A stretch of 43,367 nucleotides of DNA, taken from a virus (taxonomy: Duplodnaviria > Heunggongvirae > Uroviricota > Caudoviricetes). Shown here piece after piece: positions 1,331 through 43,367 of this stretch. The stretch spans positions 1 through 43,367 of the IMG/VR virus record IMGVR_UViG_2579778784_000007; one strand, 5' to 3'. A program made the translations under genes and the position numbers. The notes under the pieces were generated by a model. The model did no database searches. It was given only the letters and a program-made list of their open reading frames with translations, and was not told the DNA's origin. Each line of letters starts with the position of its first letter. Position 1 is the stretch's first letter.

Positions 1331-1345
1331 GCTTTTTTATACTAA
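1331..1345. other. attL: attL core (O) of lambda-type site-specific recombination
   Basis: GCTTTTTTATACTAA preceded by bacterial arm (TGAAGCCTGC) and followed by the lambda P' arm (GTTGGCATTATAAAAAAGCATTGCTTATCAATTTGTTGCAACGAACAGGTCACTATCAGTCAAAATAAAATCATTATTTG) containing arm-type Int sites. Confidence 0.92.
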
Positions 1346-1418: not shown

Positions 1419-2489
1419 TTATTTGATTTCAATTTTGTCCCACTCCCTGCCTCTGTCATCACGATACTGTGATGCCATGGTGTCCGACTTATGCCCGAGA
1501 AGATGTTGAGCAAACTTATCGCTTATCTGCTTCTCATAGAGTCTTGCAGACAAACTGCGCAACTCGTGAAAGGTAGGCGGATCCCCTTCGAAGGAAAGAC
1601 CTGATGCTTTTCGTGCGCGCATAAAATACCTTGATACTGTGCCGGATGAAAGCGGTTCACGACGAGTAGATGCAATTATGGTTTCTCCGCCAAGAATCTC
1701 TTTGCATTTATCAAGTGTTTCCTTCATTGATATCCCGAGAGCATCAACATGCAATGTTGTAGGGATGGCAATTTTTACGCCCGTTTTGCTTTGCTCGACA
1801 TAAAGATATCCATCTACGATATCAGACCACTTCATTTCGCATAAATCACCAACTCGCTGCCCGGTAACAACAGCCAGTTCCATTGCAAGTCTTAGCCAAC
1901 ATGGTGATGATTCTGCTGCTTGATAAATTTTCAGGTATTCGTCAGCCGTAAGCCTTGATCTCCTTACCTCTGATTTTGCTGCGCGAGTGGCAGCGACCGG
2001 GTTTGTTGTTATATGGCCTTCAGCTATTGCCTCTCGGAATGCATCGCTCAGTGTTGATCTGATTAACTTGGCTGATGCCGCCTTGCCCTCGTCTATGTAT
2101 CCATTGAGCATTGCCGCAATTTCTTTTGTGGTGATGTCTTCAAGTGGAGCATCAGGCAGACCCCTCCTTATTGCTTTAATTTTGCTCATGTAATTTATGA
2201 GTGTCTTCTGCTTGATTCCTCTGCTGGCGAGTATTTTTTCGTAGCGATCAAGCCATGAATGTAACGTAACAGAATTATCACTGTTGATTCTTGCTGTCAG
2301 AGGCTTGTGTTTGTGTCCTGAGAATAACTCAATGTTTGCCTGTATTGCTTCAGTAATTGCTATCCTCCTGTCTCTGCCTAATCCGAACTCTTTACCCGTC
2401 CTTGGGTCCCTGTAGCAGTAATATCCATTGTTTCTTATATAAAGGTTAGGGGGTAAATCCCGGCGCTCATGACTTCGCCTTCTTCCCAT
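1419..2489 (-). CDS. int: Integrase (tyrosine recombinase), lambda Int
   Basis: 356-aa translation MGRRRSHERRDLPPNLYIRNNGYYCYRDPRTGKEF... matches my recollection of lambda Int essentially along its whole length; adjacent to attL P' arm. Confidence 0.97.
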   Translation of the reverse strand: MGRRRSHERRDLPPNLYIRNNGYYCYRDPRTGKEFGLGRDRRIAITEAIQANIELFSGHKHKPLTARINSDNSVTLHSWLDRYEKILASRGIKQKTLINYMSKIKAIRRGLPDAPLEDITTKEIAAMLNGYIDEGKAASAKLIRSTLSDAFREAIAEGHITTNPVAATRAAKSEVRRSRLTADEYLKIYQAAESSPCWLRLAMELAVVTGQRVGDLCEMKWSDIVDGYLYVEQSKTGVKIAIPTTLHVDALGISMKETLDKCKEILGGETIIASTRREPLSSGTVSRYFMRARKASGLSFEGDPPTFHELRSLSARLYEKQISDKFAQHLLGHKSDTMASQYRDDRGREWDKIEIK

Positions 2490-2685
2490 TTCTGATCCTC
2501 TTCAAAAGGCTACCTGTTATTGGTCGATTTAAGTCAACCTTTACCGCTGATTCGTGGAACAGATACTCTCTTCCATCCTTAACCGGAGGAGGGAATATCC
2601 TGCATTCGCGTACCCATCGACGAACTGTTTCAAGGCTTCTTGGGCGTCGCTGGCGTGCGTTCCACTCCTGAAGTGTCAAGTACAT
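2467..2685 (-). CDS. xis: Excisionase, lambda Xis
   Basis: 72-aa MYLTLQEWNARQRRPRSLETVRRWVRECRIFPPPVKDGREYLFHESAVKVDLNRP...; overlaps int start as in lambda. Confidence 0.95.
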   Translation of the reverse strand: MYLTLQEWNARQRRPRSLETVRRWVRECRIFPPPVKDGREYLFHESAVKVDLNRPITGSLLKRIRNGKKAKS

Positions 2686-2710
2686 CGCAAAGTCTCCGCA
2701 ATTACACGCA

Positions 2711-2734
2711 AGAAAAAACCGCCATCAGGCGGCT
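2711..2734 (-). terminator. Intrinsic terminator between the small ORF and xis (lambda tL3-like position)
   Basis: On minus strand: GCCGCC-tgat-GGCGG stem-loop followed by TTTTTTCTT, directly after the stop of the 55-aa ORF. Confidence 0.5.
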
Positions 2735-8707: not shown

Positions 8708-9034
8708 TCAAATAAGTGGTTTGCTGCCTAATTTCATTTTCTGGCGACCAACACAAGTCACACCCATTTCACTGCGTGGCTTGCTGTACCATGTGCGCTG
8801 ATTCTTGCGCTCAATACGTTGCAGGTTGCTTTCAATCTGTTCGTGGTATTCAGCCAGCACCGTGAGGTCTATCGGATTCAGTGCGCTTTCTACTCGTGAT
8901 TTCGGTTTGCGATTCAGCGAGAGAATAGGGCGGTTAACTGGTTTTGCGCTTACCCCAACCAACAGGGGATTTGCTGCTTTCCATTGAGCCTGTTTCTCTG
9001 CGCGACGTTCGCGGCGGCGTGTTTGTGCATCCAT
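8708..9034 (-). CDS. N: Antitermination protein N
   Basis: MDAQTRRRERRAEKQAQWKAANPLLVGVSAKPVNRPILSLNRKPKSRVESALNPIDLTVLAEYH... matches lambda N including the arginine-rich boxB-binding motif; AGGAG SD. Confidence 0.93.
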   Translation of the reverse strand: MDAQTRRRERRAEKQAQWKAANPLLVGVSAKPVNRPILSLNRKPKSRVESALNPIDLTVLAEYHEQIESNLQRIERKNQRTWYSKPRSEMGVTCVGRQKMKLGSKPLI

Positions 9035-9232
9035 CTGGATTCTCCTGTCAGTTAGCTTTGGTGATTGGATGGCCGGCGCTGAACCCCGGCTTACTGGTTA
9101 GAGCGCCCGCACTACCAGTGACGCTGTCTTGAGGCGCAGATTGGTTACTGCTTGCCATGAGCGCTGTTTATACATTGGTCGAGCATCAGCCTGCTCATTC
9201 ATCCAATCCCAAAGCCTTCTGCTTTGAATGCT

Positions 9233-9263
9233 GCCCTTCTTCAGGGCTAAATTTTTAAGAGCC
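9233..9263 (-). promoter_or_regulatory. nutL: nutL (boxA + boxB) N-utilisation site
   Basis: On minus strand: boxA GCTCTTAAAAA and boxB hairpin AGCCCTGAAGAAGGGCA, as in lambda nutL, between pL and N. Confidence 0.8.
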
Positions 9264-11614: not shown

Positions 11615-11893
11615 ATGCAACTTACAAGTACTCGCAAGAAAGCGAATGCAATTACAAGCAACATCCTGAATCGAATTGCTGTACGTGGTCAGCGAAAGGT
11701 TGCTGACGCGTTAGGAATTAATGAATCGCAAATTTCGCGATGGAAAGACAGCTTCATCCCAAAAATGGGAATGCTTCTGGCTGTTCTTGAATGGGGTGTT
11801 GAAGACGAGGAGTTGGCGGAACTGGCTAAGAAAGTAGCCAGAATGCTGACAAAAGAAAAAGCCCCGAAGAACGGCGAATTCTTCGAGGCCTGA
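11615..11893 (+). CDS. cII: cII transcriptional activator
   Basis: 92 aa from ATG at 11615; SQISRWK...MLLAVLEWGV motif matches lambda CII; the leader resembles the lambda cII leader. Confidence 0.85.
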   Translation: MQLTSTRKKANAITSNILNRIAVRGQRKVADALGINESQISRWKDSFIPKMGMLLAVLEWGVEDEELAELAKKVARMLTKEKAPKNGEFFEA

Positions 11894-26454: not shown

Positions 26455-27708
26455 ATGGCTAACCAATTAGCAAAAGACCTTGAAATCATGTTCGAAAACT
26501 ACGTTGAAGGCTTTGAGGCCGCCTGCGTAGTTTCCCGTAACGCTAAAAAATTCCGTCCCGGTGATACAGCAATGCAGCGAGCAGGTGATGTTCTGTATCG
26601 TCCGCAGCATTACCACATGAACATTGAGGAAGGCCTAGACCTCAGCGGCAAAACGCCAACAGCACTGGTTCAGCGCCTTGTTCCTTCTGTGTTCAAGGAG
26701 CCGAAAAACATTCTGTACACTCTGGATGCGCGTGAAATGCGTGACCCGGAACATAAAACTGAAGCTGGTCGCGCCGCAGGTATGCGCCTTGCTGCACAGA
26801 TTGACTCTGACCTGATTTCCATGGTCACGCAGCGTGCTACTAACGTGATCACAATGGCTGACTCAACCACTGGTTCACAGGGCCGTGATTTGTGGAACTG
26901 TGCGGCAGGTATTGATGCCACCATGACGGCGATTGGTGTACCACAGGGTATCAACCGCCGCTCTTTCTGGAACCCCTTCAACTACAAAGACCTTGCTGGC
27001 GAGCTTGGTCACCGTGCCTATGCTCAGGGCGCAACCCTGACAGCATACGAAAAAGCGCAGATCCCTCCGGTTGCGTCCTTCGATAGCTACAAGACCGATA
27101 TTTCTGGTCGTGTTCCGAAGGGTACAGCAACTTCCATTACGCTGGCAGCAGCACCTGCGCACAAGGTTGAAGCGAAAGATGCTAACGAAATGCCAGTGGA
27201 TAACCGACAGGGGACCATTACGGTATCTGCTGAAGGTTTGCAGGTTGGCGATGCGTTTACCATCGCAGGGGTGAATTCCGTACACCAGATCACCAAAGAT
27301 ACCACCGGGCAGCCGCAGGTATTCCGCGTTCTGGCAGTTAGCGGAACGACAGTAACTATCTCCCCGAAAATTCTGCCGCCTGACAACGCGGATGTCGCCA
27401 GCCGTCCATATGCAAACGTTGATGCTAATGCGGCAAGTAGCGCAGCAATCACCATTCTCAACAAAAATGCCGCACCGGCTAACCTGTTCTGGGCTGATGG
27501 TTCTGTTGAACTGATGTACGGCAAGCTGGCGTTCCCAACTGGTCAGGGTCCACAAGTAATGACAGCAACCACCGAGCAGGGCGCTACGCTGATCATGTCT
27601 TACGCCTTCGACCACATCAAAGGTGTAACCACTGCGCGTTTCACCACCCTGTACGGTTGCTCTGTACTTGTTCCTGAATATACGGGCATCGTTATTGCCG
27701 GGCAGTAA
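26455..27708 (+). CDS. Major capsid (coat) protein, P22 gp5-like
   Basis: 417 aa; C-terminal segment NLFWADGSVELMYGKL parallels P22 coat NVFWADDAIRIV; position after scaffold. Confidence 0.88.
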   Translation: MANQLAKDLEIMFENYVEGFEAACVVSRNAKKFRPGDTAMQRAGDVLYRPQHYHMNIEEGLDLSGKTPTALVQRLVPSVFKEPKNILYTLDAREMRDPEHKTEAGRAAGMRLAAQIDSDLISMVTQRATNVITMADSTTGSQGRDLWNCAAGIDATMTAIGVPQGINRRSFWNPFNYKDLAGELGHRAYAQGATLTAYEKAQIPPVASFDSYKTDISGRVPKGTATSITLAAAPAHKVEAKDANEMPVDNRQGTITVSAEGLQVGDAFTIAGVNSVHQITKDTTGQPQVFRVLAVSGTTVTISPKILPPDNADVASRPYANVDANAASSAAITILNKNAAPANLFWADGSVELMYGKLAFPTGQGPQVMTATTEQGATLIMSYAFDHIKGVTTARFTTLYGCSVLVPEYTGIVIAGQ

Positions 27709-27714
27709 TTTTGG

Positions 27715-27738
27715 TGGGGCTTCGGCCCCATTTTTATT
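27715..27738 (+). terminator. Intrinsic terminator (partial) after the coat gene
   Basis: TGGGGC-ttcg-GCCCCA followed by TTTTTATT. Confidence 0.6.
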
Positions 27739-27749
27739 GGGAGAAGACA

Positions 27750-27938
27750 ATGGCACGAACAATGCTCTATAAGCCGGGCAACATGATCACCTGTGGTCAG
27801 TTTGCTGTCGATTACATCATTGTTGATGACGAAGAAGTTAAATCTCACCTGGAAAAAGGCTGGGTAAAAACTCCTGAAGAAACCGCAACGAAGCAAAAAG
27901 TGGCTAAGGCGGAAGAAGATGGCGAAAACGAAGGGTGA
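27750..27938 (+). CDS. Hypothetical small virion-module protein
   Basis: 62 aa from ATG 27750 with GGGAGAAG SD. Confidence 0.4.
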   Translation: MARTMLYKPGNMITCGQFAVDYIIVDDEEVKSHLEKGWVKTPEETATKQKVAKAEEDGENEG

Positions 27939-35388: not shown

Positions 35389-35874
35389 TTATCTAATGTT
35401 GCTGCTACTGTTGCATGTGACGGTATTTCCAAATCCTGAATTGCAGTTTGTATAGGTGTCAACACGCGTTGGGTAAGGTTGAGTTATAACAGGCTGTCTC
35501 GCTTTTTGCTCGATCGCTTGCATTGTGTTTACAGCCTGATAATTCAATAAAGCCTGCTGGAATGCTTGGCTTTGTGCTATTTGTTGGGCTTGTTCTTGGC
35601 TTTGTAATTGAACATAAAGATTCTGAAGCTCAAGTCTTGCCTGTGCGTCACTTATCTTGCCTTCATCGACACCTTGCCCGAGCATCTTCGCAGCAAGGAC
35701 ATACAGCTTAGGTGTTGGTGCTGATGCCATGCGTGAGTCGTTCTTCACGCTGGCATCAAGGCAATTAGCCATATCACTAAGCTTTGGATAGCGTTGTTCG
35801 CAACTTGCCTGATAGTCGCTTACTTTTGCGCACCCAGCCAGCAGAAGCGGGATAATTAACAGTGATTTTTTCAT
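35389..35874 (-). CDS. Predicted lipoprotein (candidate superinfection-exclusion factor)
   Basis: 161 aa; signal peptide with lipobox LLAGC; AAGGAGAG SD; encoded antisense to the virion genes in the position of P22 sieA. Confidence 0.7.
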   Translation of the reverse strand: MKKSLLIIPLLLAGCAKVSDYQASCEQRYPKLSDMANCLDASVKNDSRMASAPTPKLYVLAAKMLGQGVDEGKISDAQARLELQNLYVQLQSQEQAQQIAQSQAFQQALLNYQAVNTMQAIEQKARQPVITQPYPTRVDTYTNCNSGFGNTVTCNSSSNIR

Positions 35875-38575: not shown

Positions 38576-41059
38576 ATGTTTATTATGCCAGAACAATTAT
38601 ACAACGTAGTTGTTTCACAACCAAGTCAGTTATTTACTTTAGCTCGCTCGTTTAAAGCAAATGCCAATGGCAAAATTTATATCGGTAAAATTGACACTGA
38701 CCCGGTAAATCCAGAAAACCAGATTCAGGTTTATGTAGAGAACGAAGACGGCTCTCACGTTCCTGTTTCGCAACCAATCATCATTAACGCTGCCGGATAT
38801 CCGGTATATAACGGACAGATTGCCAAATTCGTTACCGTGCAAGGCCATTCTATGGCTGTTTATGATGCGTATGGTGCGCAGCAGTTTTATTTTCCCAATG
38901 TGCTGAAGTATGACCCCGATCAGCTACGGCAGCAATTAGAAGATCCAGATGGCGCTAAAAAATATCCTGAGTTGCAGATAGCACGATGGAGAGATTGTGG
39001 AGATGTTAGAGGTTGGGGAGCAAAAATAGATGGGGTAACAGATGATTCAGATGCTTTTATTAAAGCTTTAAACTCTGGAAGGTCGGTTATAACAATTCCT
39101 GAAGGAATATGCATCATCAAGAAGAATATTAACATTCCTGAAGGGTGTTCACTGGTTGGATCTGGCATTGATTATTGGGATACATATAGACCAGCGCCTG
39201 AAAGATTATTAAAAAGTTGGAGTAAAGGAACCCATCTTGTATTTACTGGTGATGGAGAAAAAAACAAATATTTTTTTAACATCTCTAATGAAAGACCGGT
39301 TAAAATTGTTGAAGGGATATCTTGTAAGTTCACTGAGTTTACGAATGAAGATTCTGTAGGTGTTACTCCTGCTACACCAAAAGCCATGAGCGTAGCTGTT
39401 AGTATCAACAGGGCATCACAGTTACGCAATCTGAGAATAATGGTAAGTAAAAATGGTATTGAAGGATACAATAACCCTGATTCTTATTCATTGGGTGATA
39501 ACTGGGATATAGGGTTGCATGTATACGATAGCTGTGATTCAGTTATTGATAACGTACAGATTGTCGGCTATTGGAGGGTAAAAGGACTACTACTGACAGA
39601 AAATGACGGGAGCCTTTCAATGAAGGGAAATCCTGAAAAAACGCACTTTAATAACGTTTATGTACAGTCAGGAATCGCGATAAGGAATAGCCCTCAGATT
39701 GATCTTGTAAGTAATACTGAAAGCTCAGTGACATTTAAACATAAAAAGTCGATGAGAATAACTTCAGTTAAACAGTTTAAAATTGCTGGCAGTGAATCAG
39801 TATATACGTATTCAGATGCATCATTTGATGGAACTAATATCACACTATCTGGTATTTCTCCTGAAATACAAGGTTCAATAAGTGTAATCAGGTTTCCGTC
39901 AATTGGTAATAATTTTAGTGGGACTGTTTTTGAGAATACAGTAGCCACTACTCTTGATCATACATCAGGTAAGCCATCAGAATACTTTGGCCTTCCTGCA
40001 TCCTTTGCATTAGAGATTGATGGTTTCCCTGTTCGTAATTTAAGGCTTGATAAATTCAAAGCTCAAACTACCTTTGATAAAGGAAATTGCATTTTTGGTG
40101 ATTGCCGTGATGTTAAAATCACATCATCTGAGTTTGAAAATGGAATTATGATTGCGTATAACCTGACCGAGACTCAGGGTTATACAGGAAATCTTAGATT
40201 TTTTGCTTCTGATCTTCAGAGCAGCGTTAACACAAGCGAGTTTAAACCAAGAGACGCATTTGTAGACAATAGACAAATAAAAACGGAGTTTACTGATGGT
40301 TCTTTCATTATAAAGAACTGGAGGCCTACAGATACAAAAATACAATGGTCGTCTGGAGTGGATGCTATTGTTCTTAGAGAGTCACCTGACGAACAATCAA
40401 ACGGAAATATTTACGGGTATCACATTGATGGTAAAAGATGGATTAATGTTAGTGGATATAACAAAGATATAAATATTTCATCAAGAAACTTAAGCGTAAA
40501 AAACCATAGTGATGACTCCGCAGTTATTAATATATTCGGCGACTCTGGAAATATTGCCATTAAAGGTAATTTTTCACCAATTGTTGATAACAGCAAATCT
40601 CTTGGTGCACCATCATTTAGATGGGCTCAGATTTATTCTGCATCTGGGACTATAAGCACATCAGATGAAACACTTAAAACAATATATGACATTACTCAGG
40701 CAGAGCGTGATGCTGCGCTGGAAATAAAGGGAATTATATGCAAGTTCAGGTTTAATGAGTCGATTAATTTTAAAGGATTGGAGTTATCAAGGTATCATTT
40801 TGGAGTTGGCGCTCAAACCGTAGGGGATATTCTTAGAAAGCATGGTTTAAACCCTGAGCAATATGCTTTTTGGTGTTACGATGAATGGCCAGACGTATGG
40901 GATGAAGAGGTGATAACTGAAGAGAGCACAGATCCTGATACAGGTGAGAAAATTTATTCTCAATATAAAACAGGAAATATGATTCTTGTAAAAAAAGCAG
41001 GTGGACGCTACGGAATTCGTTATGACGAATTGGCTATGTTTATATTAATGGCAATGTAG
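38576..41059 (+). CDS. Tailspike: P22 gp9-like N-terminal head-binding domain, divergent central receptor-binding domain, C-terminal intramolecular chaperone (S74-like) domain
   Basis: N-terminus [53 protein letters not shown]...[12 protein letters not shown]...VLKYDPDQ aligns with P22 gp9 residues ~7..120; C-terminal ~130 aa resemble the auto-cleaving chaperone domain of endosialidase/K5 lyase/T5 fibre, with an S-x4-K dyad at SDETLK (Ser codon 40661..40663). Confidence 0.88.
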
Positions 41060-41078
41060 TTGCAATAAATGCAGTATA

Positions 41079-41107
41079 TCCCGCATGAAAACTGCGGGAT
41101 TGTTTTT
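41079..41107 (+). terminator. Intrinsic terminator after the tailspike gene
   Basis: TCCCGCA-tgaaaac-TGCGGGA followed by TTGTTTTTA. Confidence 0.6.
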
Positions 41108-41358
41108 ATCTAGTGTATTTGTGAGTTTTAAATAAAATTTGGTATGGATTCTTGCATCGTAGTGAACGCAGGATTACCTATGAAACAAAACTGAGACACA
41201 CAAAGCTTTGCACTGGATTGCAAGGCTTTGTGTCATTCGATAGTTAAGGTGGATCACTCCACCTTTTCATCAAGACAATCCGCCCACCACTGCATCATGT
41301 CTCTGCGATTATCGAGATACTGAGCATGGTTGTAAATTCAACTAACCCAGTGAGTTGG

Positions 41359-41400
41359 CAAAAAATTAGCGCAAGAGGACAAAAAATCACCTTGCGCTAA
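41359..41400 (-). terminator. sib: sib/tI-like hairpin terminator in the attP P arm (retroregulation element of int)
   Basis: 10-bp stem TTAGCGCAAG / CTTGCGCTAA with T-tract on the minus strand; surrounding sequence resembles the lambda P arm, including arm-type Int sites (CAGGTCACTAAT, AGTGACTGG). Confidence 0.5.
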
Positions 41401-41546
41401 TGCTCTGTTACAGGTCACTAATGCCATCTAAGTGTTTGATTCATAGTGACTGGATATGTTGTGATTTGTAGCATTATGCAGTCTATTTTTTAGACTAAAG
41501 ATATTATAACACATTGATATTAATGGTTTTTAATGTTTCATGTTCA

Positions 41547-41561
41547 GCTTTTTTATACTAA
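41547..41561. other. attR: attR core (O)
   Basis: GCTTTTTTATACTAA followed by bacterial B' arm CTTGAGCGAAACGGGAAGG; identical core to attL. Confidence 0.92.
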
Positions 41562-41651
41562 CTTGAGCGAAACGGGAAGGTAAAAAGACAAAAAGTTGTT
41601 TTTAATACCTTTAAGTGATACCAGATGGCATTGCGCCATCTGGCAGAGTGA

Positions 41652-42128
41652 TTAACTAAACATCGCAGTAATCGAGGCACTCGCCAGAGAGTGAAAATGA
41701 ACGTTAAACCCGACCATCGTGCCGCTGGCACCTTCATCGACATCAATACGTTCTACATCCAGCGCGTGAACGGTAAAAATGTAGCGATGGGTTTCGCCTT
41801 TCGGCGGCGCTGCGCCATCGTATCCGGTTTTACCAAAGTCGGTACGCGTCTGCAAAACGCCGTCTGGCATTGCTACCAGACCAGAGCCAAACCCTTGCGG
41901 TAATACGCGGGTATCAGCGGGTAAATTAACAACTACCCAGTGCCACCAGCCGGAGCCGGTTGGCGCATCCGGGTCGTAGCAGGTGACAACAAAACTTTTC
42001 GTTCCCACAGGAACATCATCCCACGCCAGATGCGGTGAAATATTATCGCCATCGTAACCCATGCCGTTAAAGACATGACGATGCGGCAGCTTATCGCCAT
42101 CGCGCAGATCGTTACTGATGAGTTTCAT
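41652..42128 (-). CDS. ybhB: YbhB, PEBP/RKIP-family protein (host gene)
   Basis: 158 aa MKLISNDLRDGDKLPHRHVFNGMGYDGDNISPHLAWDDVP... recalled as E. coli YbhB, the right-hand neighbour of attB-lambda. Confidence 0.88.
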   Translation of the reverse strand: MKLISNDLRDGDKLPHRHVFNGMGYDGDNISPHLAWDDVPVGTKSFVVTCYDPDAPTGSGWWHWVVVNLPADTRVLPQGFGSGLVAMPDGVLQTRTDFGKTGYDGAAPPKGETHRYIFTVHALDVERIDVDEGASGTMVGFNVHFHSLASASITAMFS

Positions 42129-42236: not shown

Positions 42237-43367
42237 ATGAAACGCGCATATAAATACCGGTTTTACCCGACAACTGAGCAGGCTGAGCTTTTAGCTCAGA
42301 CGTTTGGCTGTGTGCGCTTCGTCTACAATTCCATCCTTCGTTGGCGTACCGATGCGTACTACGAGCGAAAAGAAAAGATCGGTTATCTACAGGCCAACGC
42401 TCGCCTTACGGCGCTCAAAAAAGAGCCTGAATACATATGGCTGAATGATGTTTCCTGCGTTCCCCTCCAGCAGTCGTTGCGCCACCAACAAGCCGCCTTT
42501 GCTAACTTCTTTGCTGGACGAGTTGCATATCCGGCTTTCAAAAGCAAACGGCACAAACAGGTGGCTGAGTTCACTGCCAGCGCGTTTAAACACCGTGACG
42601 GCGAGTTGTATATAGCAAAGAGCAAGTCGCCGCTGGATGTTCGCTGGAGTCGAGAATTACCATCTGCGCCGTCAACCGTTACCATTTCCAGAGATAGCGC
42701 TGGCAGGTACTTTGTTTCCTGCCTGTGTGAGTTTGAACCTGTATCAATGCCTGTTACCGCTAAAACGGTCGGCATTGATGTGGGCTTAAAAGATTTATTC
42801 GTCACCGATACCGGATTCAAAACCGACAATCCCCGCCACACCGCTAAATATGCGAAGCGATTAACGCTGCTACAGCGACGTTTAAGCAGGAAGCAAAAAG
42901 GCTCAAGAAACCGTATTAAAGCCCGCTTAAAGGTCGCCCGACTCCACGCGAAAATCGCCGATTGCCGGATGGACAATCTGCACAAGTTGTCCCGCAAACT
43001 GATTAACGAAAACCAAGTTGTTTGCGTCGAATCCCTCAAGGTGAAAAACATGATCCGCAACCCGAAGCTGTCTAAAGCAATAGCTGACGCAGGCTGGAGC
43101 GAACTTGTTCGCCAGCTCCAGTACAAAGGCAAATGGGCCGGGCGGTCAGTGGTCGCCATTGACCAGTATTTACCGTCCTCAAAATGCTGTAGTTGCTGCG
43201 GTTTCACCATGCAAAAAATGCCTCTTAATGTTCGTAAATGGCACTGCCCTGAATGCGGCGCAGACCATGATCGCGACATTAACGCGGCACGTAATATTAA
43301 AGCTGCCGGGCTGGCAGTGTTAGCCCACGGAGAGCCTGTAAACCCTGAATCGCAGCACGCGGCTTAG
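42237..43367 (+). CDS. tnpB: TnpB (IS200/IS605-family RuvC-like, RNA-guided nuclease type)
   Basis: 376 aa ending at the window edge with TAG; RuvC-like motifs (GIDVGLKDL; VCVESLKVKNM; HDRDINAARNI) and zinc finger CCSCC...HCPECG; no tnpA in window. Confidence 0.85.
   Translation: MKRAYKYRFYPTTEQAELLAQTFGCVRFVYNSILRWRTDAYYERKEKIGYLQANARLTALKKEPEYIWLNDVSCVPLQQSLRHQQAAFANFFAGRVAYPAFKSKRHKQVAEFTASAFKHRDGELYIAKSKSPLDVRWSRELPSAPSTVTISRDSAGRYFVSCLCEFEPVSMPVTAKTVGIDVGLKDLFVTDTGFKTDNPRHTAKYAKRLTLLQRRLSRKQKGSRNRIKARLKVARLHAKIADCRMDNLHKLSRKLINENQVVCVESLKVKNMIRNPKLSKAIADAGWSELVRQLQYKGKWAGRSVVAIDQYLPSSKCCSCCGFTMQKMPLNVRKWHCPECGADHDRDINAARNIKAAGLAVLAHGEPVNPESQHAA

Follow-up and report, generated by a model that had tools for sequence, protein, structure and literature searches.

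Evidence for a lambda-type sib/tI retroregulatory element at the attR end of a P22-like prophage in Escherichia coli

The prophage and its integration module

The window, that is, the whole stretch of 43,367 nucleotides that was analysed, comprises the ybhC-ybhB interval of E. coli, in which a prophage of about 40.2 kb occupies the attachment site of lambda. The left flank contains the pectinesterase-family gene ybhC and the right flank contains the PEBP-family gene ybhB. Immediately beyond ybhB, where bioA would be expected, lies a plus-strand ORF (42237-43367) for a 376-aa protein of the IS605 OrfB/TnpB family (PF12323, PF01385, PF07282), and the window ends exactly at the stop codon of this ORF. 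In an identical genome, the ORF has been named 'RNA-guided endonuclease InsQ/TnpB family protein' by PGAP. Just downstream of ybhB, in the B' flank, a 9-bp hairpin (CCAGATGGC-loop-GCCATCTGG, 41622-41644) is present that is followed by a U-tract on neither strand.

The phage is a P22-like mosaic and not lambda. Its tailspike carries the P22 head-binding domain and the closest phage records belong to Lederbergvirus. A previous reading of the locus, which was made from the sequence only, had invoked classical lambda biology. This description suits the integration module and does not extend to the whole phage, of which only about 4.4 kb align to lambda. The attachment sites and the integrase gene are as follows:

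1331-1345, plus strand: attL core GCTTTTTTATACTAA, exact 15-bp match
1346-1418, no strand: P' arm, 73/73 positions identical to lambda 27739-27811
1419-2489, minus strand: int, 356 aa, 353/356 aa identical to lambda Int
41402-41546, no strand: attR on the side of the P arm, with the counterpart of lambda 'int 1' at about 41406-41425
41547-41561, plus strand: attR core GCTTTTTTATACTAA, exact 15-bp match, with the bacterial B' arm and ybhB beyond

The 15-bp core occurs exactly twice in the window. The int gene is located at attL and is transcribed leftward into ybhC, away from the hairpin that is described below, which lies at attR about 39 kb apart from int. The positions of the two cores (1331-1345 and 41547-41561) thus bear out the earlier statement that the hairpin is found at the opposite end of the prophage from int and is uncoupled from it until excision.

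The two halves of attP differ in their relationship to lambda. The segment 1331-2968, which covers the core, the P' arm, int and xis, is 97.6% identical to lambda over 1,638 bp. By contrast, the segment with the hairpin, the P arm and the core (41356-41565) showed 84.8% identity to lambda 27534-27742 in a BLAST comparison and is closer to the relatives of Huey, PDP110P2 and 434. The differing halves are consistent with an earlier exchange in or close to the core that involved distinct lambdoid phages.

The window also contains the phage-encoded parts with which a lambda-type integrase gene is controlled:

2467-2685, minus strand: xis, 72 aa, Pfam Exc PF07825 (1e-40), 70/72 aa identical to lambda Xis
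2698-2711, minus strand: CII-binding repeat TTGCGTGTAATTGC of pI, at the start of xis, identical to lambda
8708-9034, minus strand: lambda-type N antiterminator gene, Pfam N36 PF11438 (E = 1.5e-26)
9232-9248, minus strand: nutL boxB, identical to lambda 35518-35534
11615-11893, plus strand: cII homologue, the pI activator, Pfam Phage_CII PF05269 (E = 1.8e-42)

The repeat TTGCGTGTAATTGC at 2698-2711 is known as the CII site of pI, and the record of phage 434 annotates the equivalent site. The DNA of the N region is 93.7% identical to the N region of lambda. With the pI CII repeat, N, the nutL boxB and the CII homologue, parts by which int would be expressed differently from the two promoters pI and pL are present. 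The host gene rnc is located outside the window.

A hairpin that abuts the P arm

A perfect 10-bp inverted repeat, TTAGCGCAAG / CTTGCGCTAA, is located at 41366-41375 and 41391-41400. The plus strand across the hairpin region reads ggcAAAAAATTAGCGCAAGaggacaaaaaatcacCTTGCGCTAAtgctctg, and its A6 stretch at 41360-41365 provides a U6 tract on the minus strand, directly 3' of the hairpin stem. The earlier description of a long hairpin with a T-tract on the int-coding strand could therefore be confirmed by the repeat, the minus-strand U6 and the minus-strand orientation of int. For the minus-strand RNA of 41350-41410, a fold of -22.8 kcal/mol is predicted (z = -4.8); shuffled versions of this segment gave a mean of -9.8 +/- 2.7, and none of the 200 folded as well as the native sequence. 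Moreover, a hairpin pattern derived from lambda matched once in the window and in none of 100 shuffles. The following parts can be assigned:

41359-41407, minus strand: complete sib/tI element as predicted in read-through RNA, from the folds, the lambda alignment and the conservation in 14 phages
41365-41401, minus strand: tI terminator hairpin proper, the only part that RNA ending at the U-tract is predicted to form
41360-41365, minus strand: U6 tract of the intrinsic terminator tI, invariant in 14/14 aligned phages
41390-41401 with 41365-41376, minus strand: main stem of 12 bp, predicted fold
41378-41388, minus strand: apical 3-bp stem with a 5-nt loop, predicted fold
41403-41407 with 41359-41363, minus strand: lower stem of 5 bp (CAGAG/UUUUG), predicted fold

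The 12-bp main stem is flanked by two 1x1 mismatches, one towards the lower stem and one towards the apical stem. RNA that ends at the U-tract is predicted to fold into the 12+3 bp hairpin only, without the lower stem, whereas read-through RNA is predicted to gain the 5-bp lower stem and thereby a structure of about 20 bp with the two 1x1 mismatches. The sequence-only reading had placed the element at 41359-41400; the location of the hairpin was correct, and the end has to be moved 7 nt further right, as the full predicted structure reaches 41407.

It had also been stated that the hairpin is retained in the attR-side P arm. The hairpin is indeed found at attR. However, counted from the core centre, the end of its main stem is at -153, and the lower stem touches the left edge of the site equivalent to lambda 'int 1'; therefore, the hairpin borders on the P arm and does not lie inside it. 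In lambda, the minimal attP extends from -152 to +82 and the sib hairpin is located outside of it.

The segment 41359-41407 could be aligned with lambda 27537-27585, with 48/49 identical bases, one extra loop base and both stem arms identical. Thus, the alignment that had been proposed for checking the equation of the hairpin with sib/tI speaks in its favour. The lambda element and the element of the window agree in the U6 tract, in their strand with respect to int and in bordering directly on the P arm, and they share as partners N, nutL, Xis, Int (99% identical) and the CII site of pI. Throughout the main stem, every paired base is that of wild-type lambda, which means that the stem arms carry no mutation. 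The element departs from lambda by an additional U in the loop of the apical stem and by a U-to-C exchange at 41377, an unpaired position. A further U-to-C exchange at 41358, just past the element, is the one change in the comparison that is peculiar to the window; through it, the lambda fold loses its lowest A-U pair, which stands below the C-G closing pair. This GCC variant also occurs in several IMG/VR phage contigs, and the lowest A-U pair is therefore not a conserved part of the element. Downstream of the element, lambda continues into the b region (ea59), whereas the window continues into a relic of 27 codons of an IntS integrase gene and then into the tailspike gene.

The same block has been annotated in related phages. 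In the HK97 record (NC_002167, 21042-21091), the homologous block is labelled 'sib retroregulation site', and the record of phage 434 (OL657226, 24828-24869) labels it as a minus-strand terminator. Both copies are placed with respect to int and the att core as the one in the window is, but they possess the lambda-like loop of five U and downstream flanks that are unlike those of the window. The IntS relic stands beside the block in the 434 and JEP4 records, as it does in the window, and is absent from HK97. The sib/tI element is thus already known and publicly annotated in related phages.

Taken together, the minus-strand segment 41359-41407 very probably represents sib/tI, the retroregulatory element of an integration module of the lambda type, in a P22-like prophage that is inserted between ybhC and ybhB, at the attachment site of lambda. 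For this element, the analysis shows the identity to lambda, the predicted structures, the positions and the presence of the phage-encoded partner elements.

The hairpin at 41359-41407 was not listed by a consensus terminator scan, because the 1x1 mismatch below the apical stem breaks the rule of a contiguous stem with a loop of 3-8 nt. The miss is an artefact of this rule and therefore provides no evidence against the hairpin. A search of 40900-41700 against Rfam (E <= 1) yielded no match, including to the Rfam family 'Sib', which represents the antitoxin sRNAs of E. coli (Sib/Ibs). Rfam has no curated family for lambda sib, and the name that the 'Sib' sRNAs share with lambda sib is coincidental, as the elements are unrelated. 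A role of the hairpin as a plus-strand terminator of the late operon was considered and rejected: the hairpin forms in plus-strand RNA, but no U-tract follows, and the tailspike gene already has its own terminator at 41078-41100.

Conservation and neighbourhood of the element

For a comparative analysis, the element was aligned in 14 lambdoid phages, some of which have other att cores, namely mEp235 (HK022 type), Stx1a_99E13, PPompW_699 and BP-4795. The sib/tI block turned out to be the most conserved block, with a mean pairwise identity of 0.955 and 40/49 invariant columns, compared with 0.72 for the P arm and 0.44 beyond the U-tract. In every phage aligned, the homology to the others ends within a few bases of the U-tract. 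Compensatory changes were not observed: none of the 21 pairs changes on both sides and 17 of them never vary in the 14 phages. Covariation thus lends no support, because the stem is nearly invariant. In the same alignment, 98.6% of the cells are paired, compared with 41-61% when the partner was slid by 1-3 columns. Variable columns are more frequent at unpaired (5/9) than at paired positions (5/42; Fisher p = 0.009). Beyond strong conservation, the comparative data add nothing to the structure. The core pattern is present in 68 IMG/VR contigs, which add flank variants only.

The element is also common in E. coli genomes. At least 80% of the window segment 41150-41700 is carried by 603 of 5,426 complete E. 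coli genomes (about 11%), two of which are 100% identical over 41150-41700. In CP035498, the one genome with the attR junction that was inspected, the annotation contains no sib feature.

The sequence between sib/tI and the tailspike gene contains the remnant of another integrase gene. The 27-codon relic (41254-41337, minus strand) corresponds to the C-terminus of an integrase of the IntS/Sf6 type (P4-like), reads IYNHAQYLDNRRDMMQWWADCLDEKVE* and is preceded by an upstream stop codon. In a BLASTP comparison, 23 of the 27 residues were identical to the C-terminus of HK633 IntS. A Pfam search of the 27-aa sequence, which is too short, gave no match. In E. coli 04-00955, PGAP calls the relic a pseudogene fragment. 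The relic adjoins sib in 434, JEP4, Huey, 720R6, PDP110P2 and Salmonella phage SF6, and it is absent in lambda and HK97. This arrangement suggests that a lambda-type sib-attP-int module may have replaced a module of the IntS type. A promoter-like site on the minus strand (41336-41308) lies inside the relic and was discarded, as three such sites were found and 4.2 are expected by chance.

A second long hairpin, GACACACAAAGCTTTGCA-CTGGAT-TGCAAGGCTTTGTGTC, is located at 41197-41236 (z = -2.7), and it is followed by a U-rich run on the minus strand. Its counterparts are found in lambda from about 27473 onward, in epsilon34 (NC_011976, 21499-21525) and in 434 (OL657226, 24670-24693), and many lambdoid phages have kept it, among them lambda, P22, epsilon34 and HK75. 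This hairpin is always located downstream of int and on the int strand. In HK633 it lies between the IntS stop codon and attP, and in epsilon34 it lies beyond attP. It contains TTGC-N6-TTGC repeats, and two records annotate putative CII-binding sites there. Like sib, the int terminator hairpin of the P22-like or IntS type, as present in epsilon34 and HK633, is an int-strand hairpin downstream of the integrase gene. However, its sequence with the TTGC-N6-TTGC repeats is unrelated to sib. In the window, the copy at 41197-41236 is the second hairpin and more distal than sib. To our knowledge, no role of RNase III has been described for hairpins of this type.

On the plus strand, a canonical intrinsic terminator with an 8-bp stem, five G-C pairs and a T-rich tail (41078-41100) follows the stop codon of the tailspike gene at a distance of 19 nt. 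About 260 bp separate it from tI, towards which it points. The late and the early-left transcription units are therefore closed by convergent terminators.

It may be asked whether the sib/tI block represents an unusually constrained module boundary that is exchanged separately. Three observations point in this direction. First, the block is about 95% identical across phages that differ in their P arms, att cores and integrase specificities. Second, the homology stops near the U-tract, and the block of the window is joined directly to the IntS relic. Third, the halves of attP differ, the P' arm and int being 98-100% and the P arm about 85% identical to lambda. We nevertheless consider this interpretation rather unlikely. 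If the edge of the terminator were a preferred recombination joint, this would add a minor detail to what is known of mosaicism among lambdoid phages.

Expected retroregulation of int and alternative readings

It is established for lambda that RNase III cleaves at sib and that the int message is subsequently degraded. The primary studies on sib are those of Schindler and Echols from 1981, Guarneros et al. from 1982, Schmeissner et al. from 1984 and Plunkett and Echols from 1989. Owing to sib, which is located distal to int, the expression of Int differs between the pI and pL promoters, and early after infection sib lowers the amount of int mRNA relative to xis (PMC2951348; PMC5300877).

The prophage of the window probably follows the same scheme. 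In the circular phage DNA, attP would be intact and sib/tI would be located downstream of int on the same strand; in the re-formed attP, the U-tract ends 275 nt beyond the stop codon of int, compared with 274 nt in lambda, because of the 1-nt insertion in the loop. Transcripts starting at the CII-activated pI promoter would end at the hairpin and U6 (tI), and the terminal hairpin would protect them, thereby allowing the synthesis of Int without Xis and thus integration. By contrast, N would act at nutL on the transcripts from pL and allow them to pass tI. The 3' sequence that is added to the pL RNA would extend the stem to about 20 bp and make it a target of the host RNase III. Upon removal of the hairpin, the int mRNA would be open to 3'-to-5' decay, and little Int would be made. 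In the prophage, attP has been split by integration, with the element at attR and int at attL. Since int is transcribed away from attR, the pL transcripts that are made on induction would lack sib, so that both Int and Xis could be produced and excision could occur. Excision would then rejoin int and sib/tI.

The predicted folds of the terminated and the read-through RNA agree with this model of retroregulation. According to the qualitative rules for RNase III that are outlined in PMC6212723, positions between the cuts are paired, usually with a G-C pair. The predicted GCGC stem is compatible with these rules, which do not predict cut sites. The efficiency of termination, the cleavage by RNase III and the effect on the level of Int that may be expected at 41359-41407 are those known from lambda.

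Alternatively, the element could be a plain intrinsic terminator that acts on leftward transcription only, with the retroregulation by RNase III having been lost in the mosaic phage. This is very unlikely. In its favour, one basal pair of the extended stem of lambda is lost by the exchange at 41358, lambda and the window have unrelated sequences beyond the U-tract and the lower stem has no support from covariation. However, the lower stem itself is intact and predicted to form in the read-through RNA, the GCC variant is common to several other phage contigs, and N and nutL are of the lambda type. Moreover, every aligned phage loses homology near the U-tract, and the downstream sequence thus apparently lies outside the conserved element.

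Even less probable is a function in the lysogen that would be additional to the role in the phage cycle, namely that tI ends read-through from ybhB before it runs antisense into the tailspike gene. The geometry would permit such an insulation: ybhB (41652-42128, minus strand) lies directly upstream of attR, the hairpin that follows it lacks a U-tract, and tI is the first U-tract hairpin on the minus strand, with the second one beyond it at 41197-41236. If the hairpin at 41622-41644 terminates poorly, read-through from ybhB would enter attR and meet tI. However, phages with other integration sites show the same degree of conservation of the element, which has therefore not been selected for this host context. 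Finally, the palindrome could be fortuitous, or it could bind proteins as a part of attP, in either case without a function as RNA. The hairpin does border on the P arm, with its lower stem reaching the edge of the 'int 1' equivalent. Both readings can nevertheless practically be dismissed, because the fold statistics (z = -4.8, 0/200 shuffles) rule out chance, the identity of 0.955 is maintained across phages with differing P arms and cores, the U-tract is strand-specific and the element is known to lie outside the minimal attP.

The assignment of 41359-41407 to sib/tI agrees with textbook lambda biology, and beyond correct annotation the finding matters little. The annotation of sib is merited wherever a complete E. 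coli genome has the attR junction, which applies to roughly 11% of them. The prophage possesses a complete and apparently functional module of the lambda type for the control of integration and excision, comprising attL, attR, int, xis, pI, sib/tI, N and nutL. It has therefore likely retained the capacity to regulate both processes.
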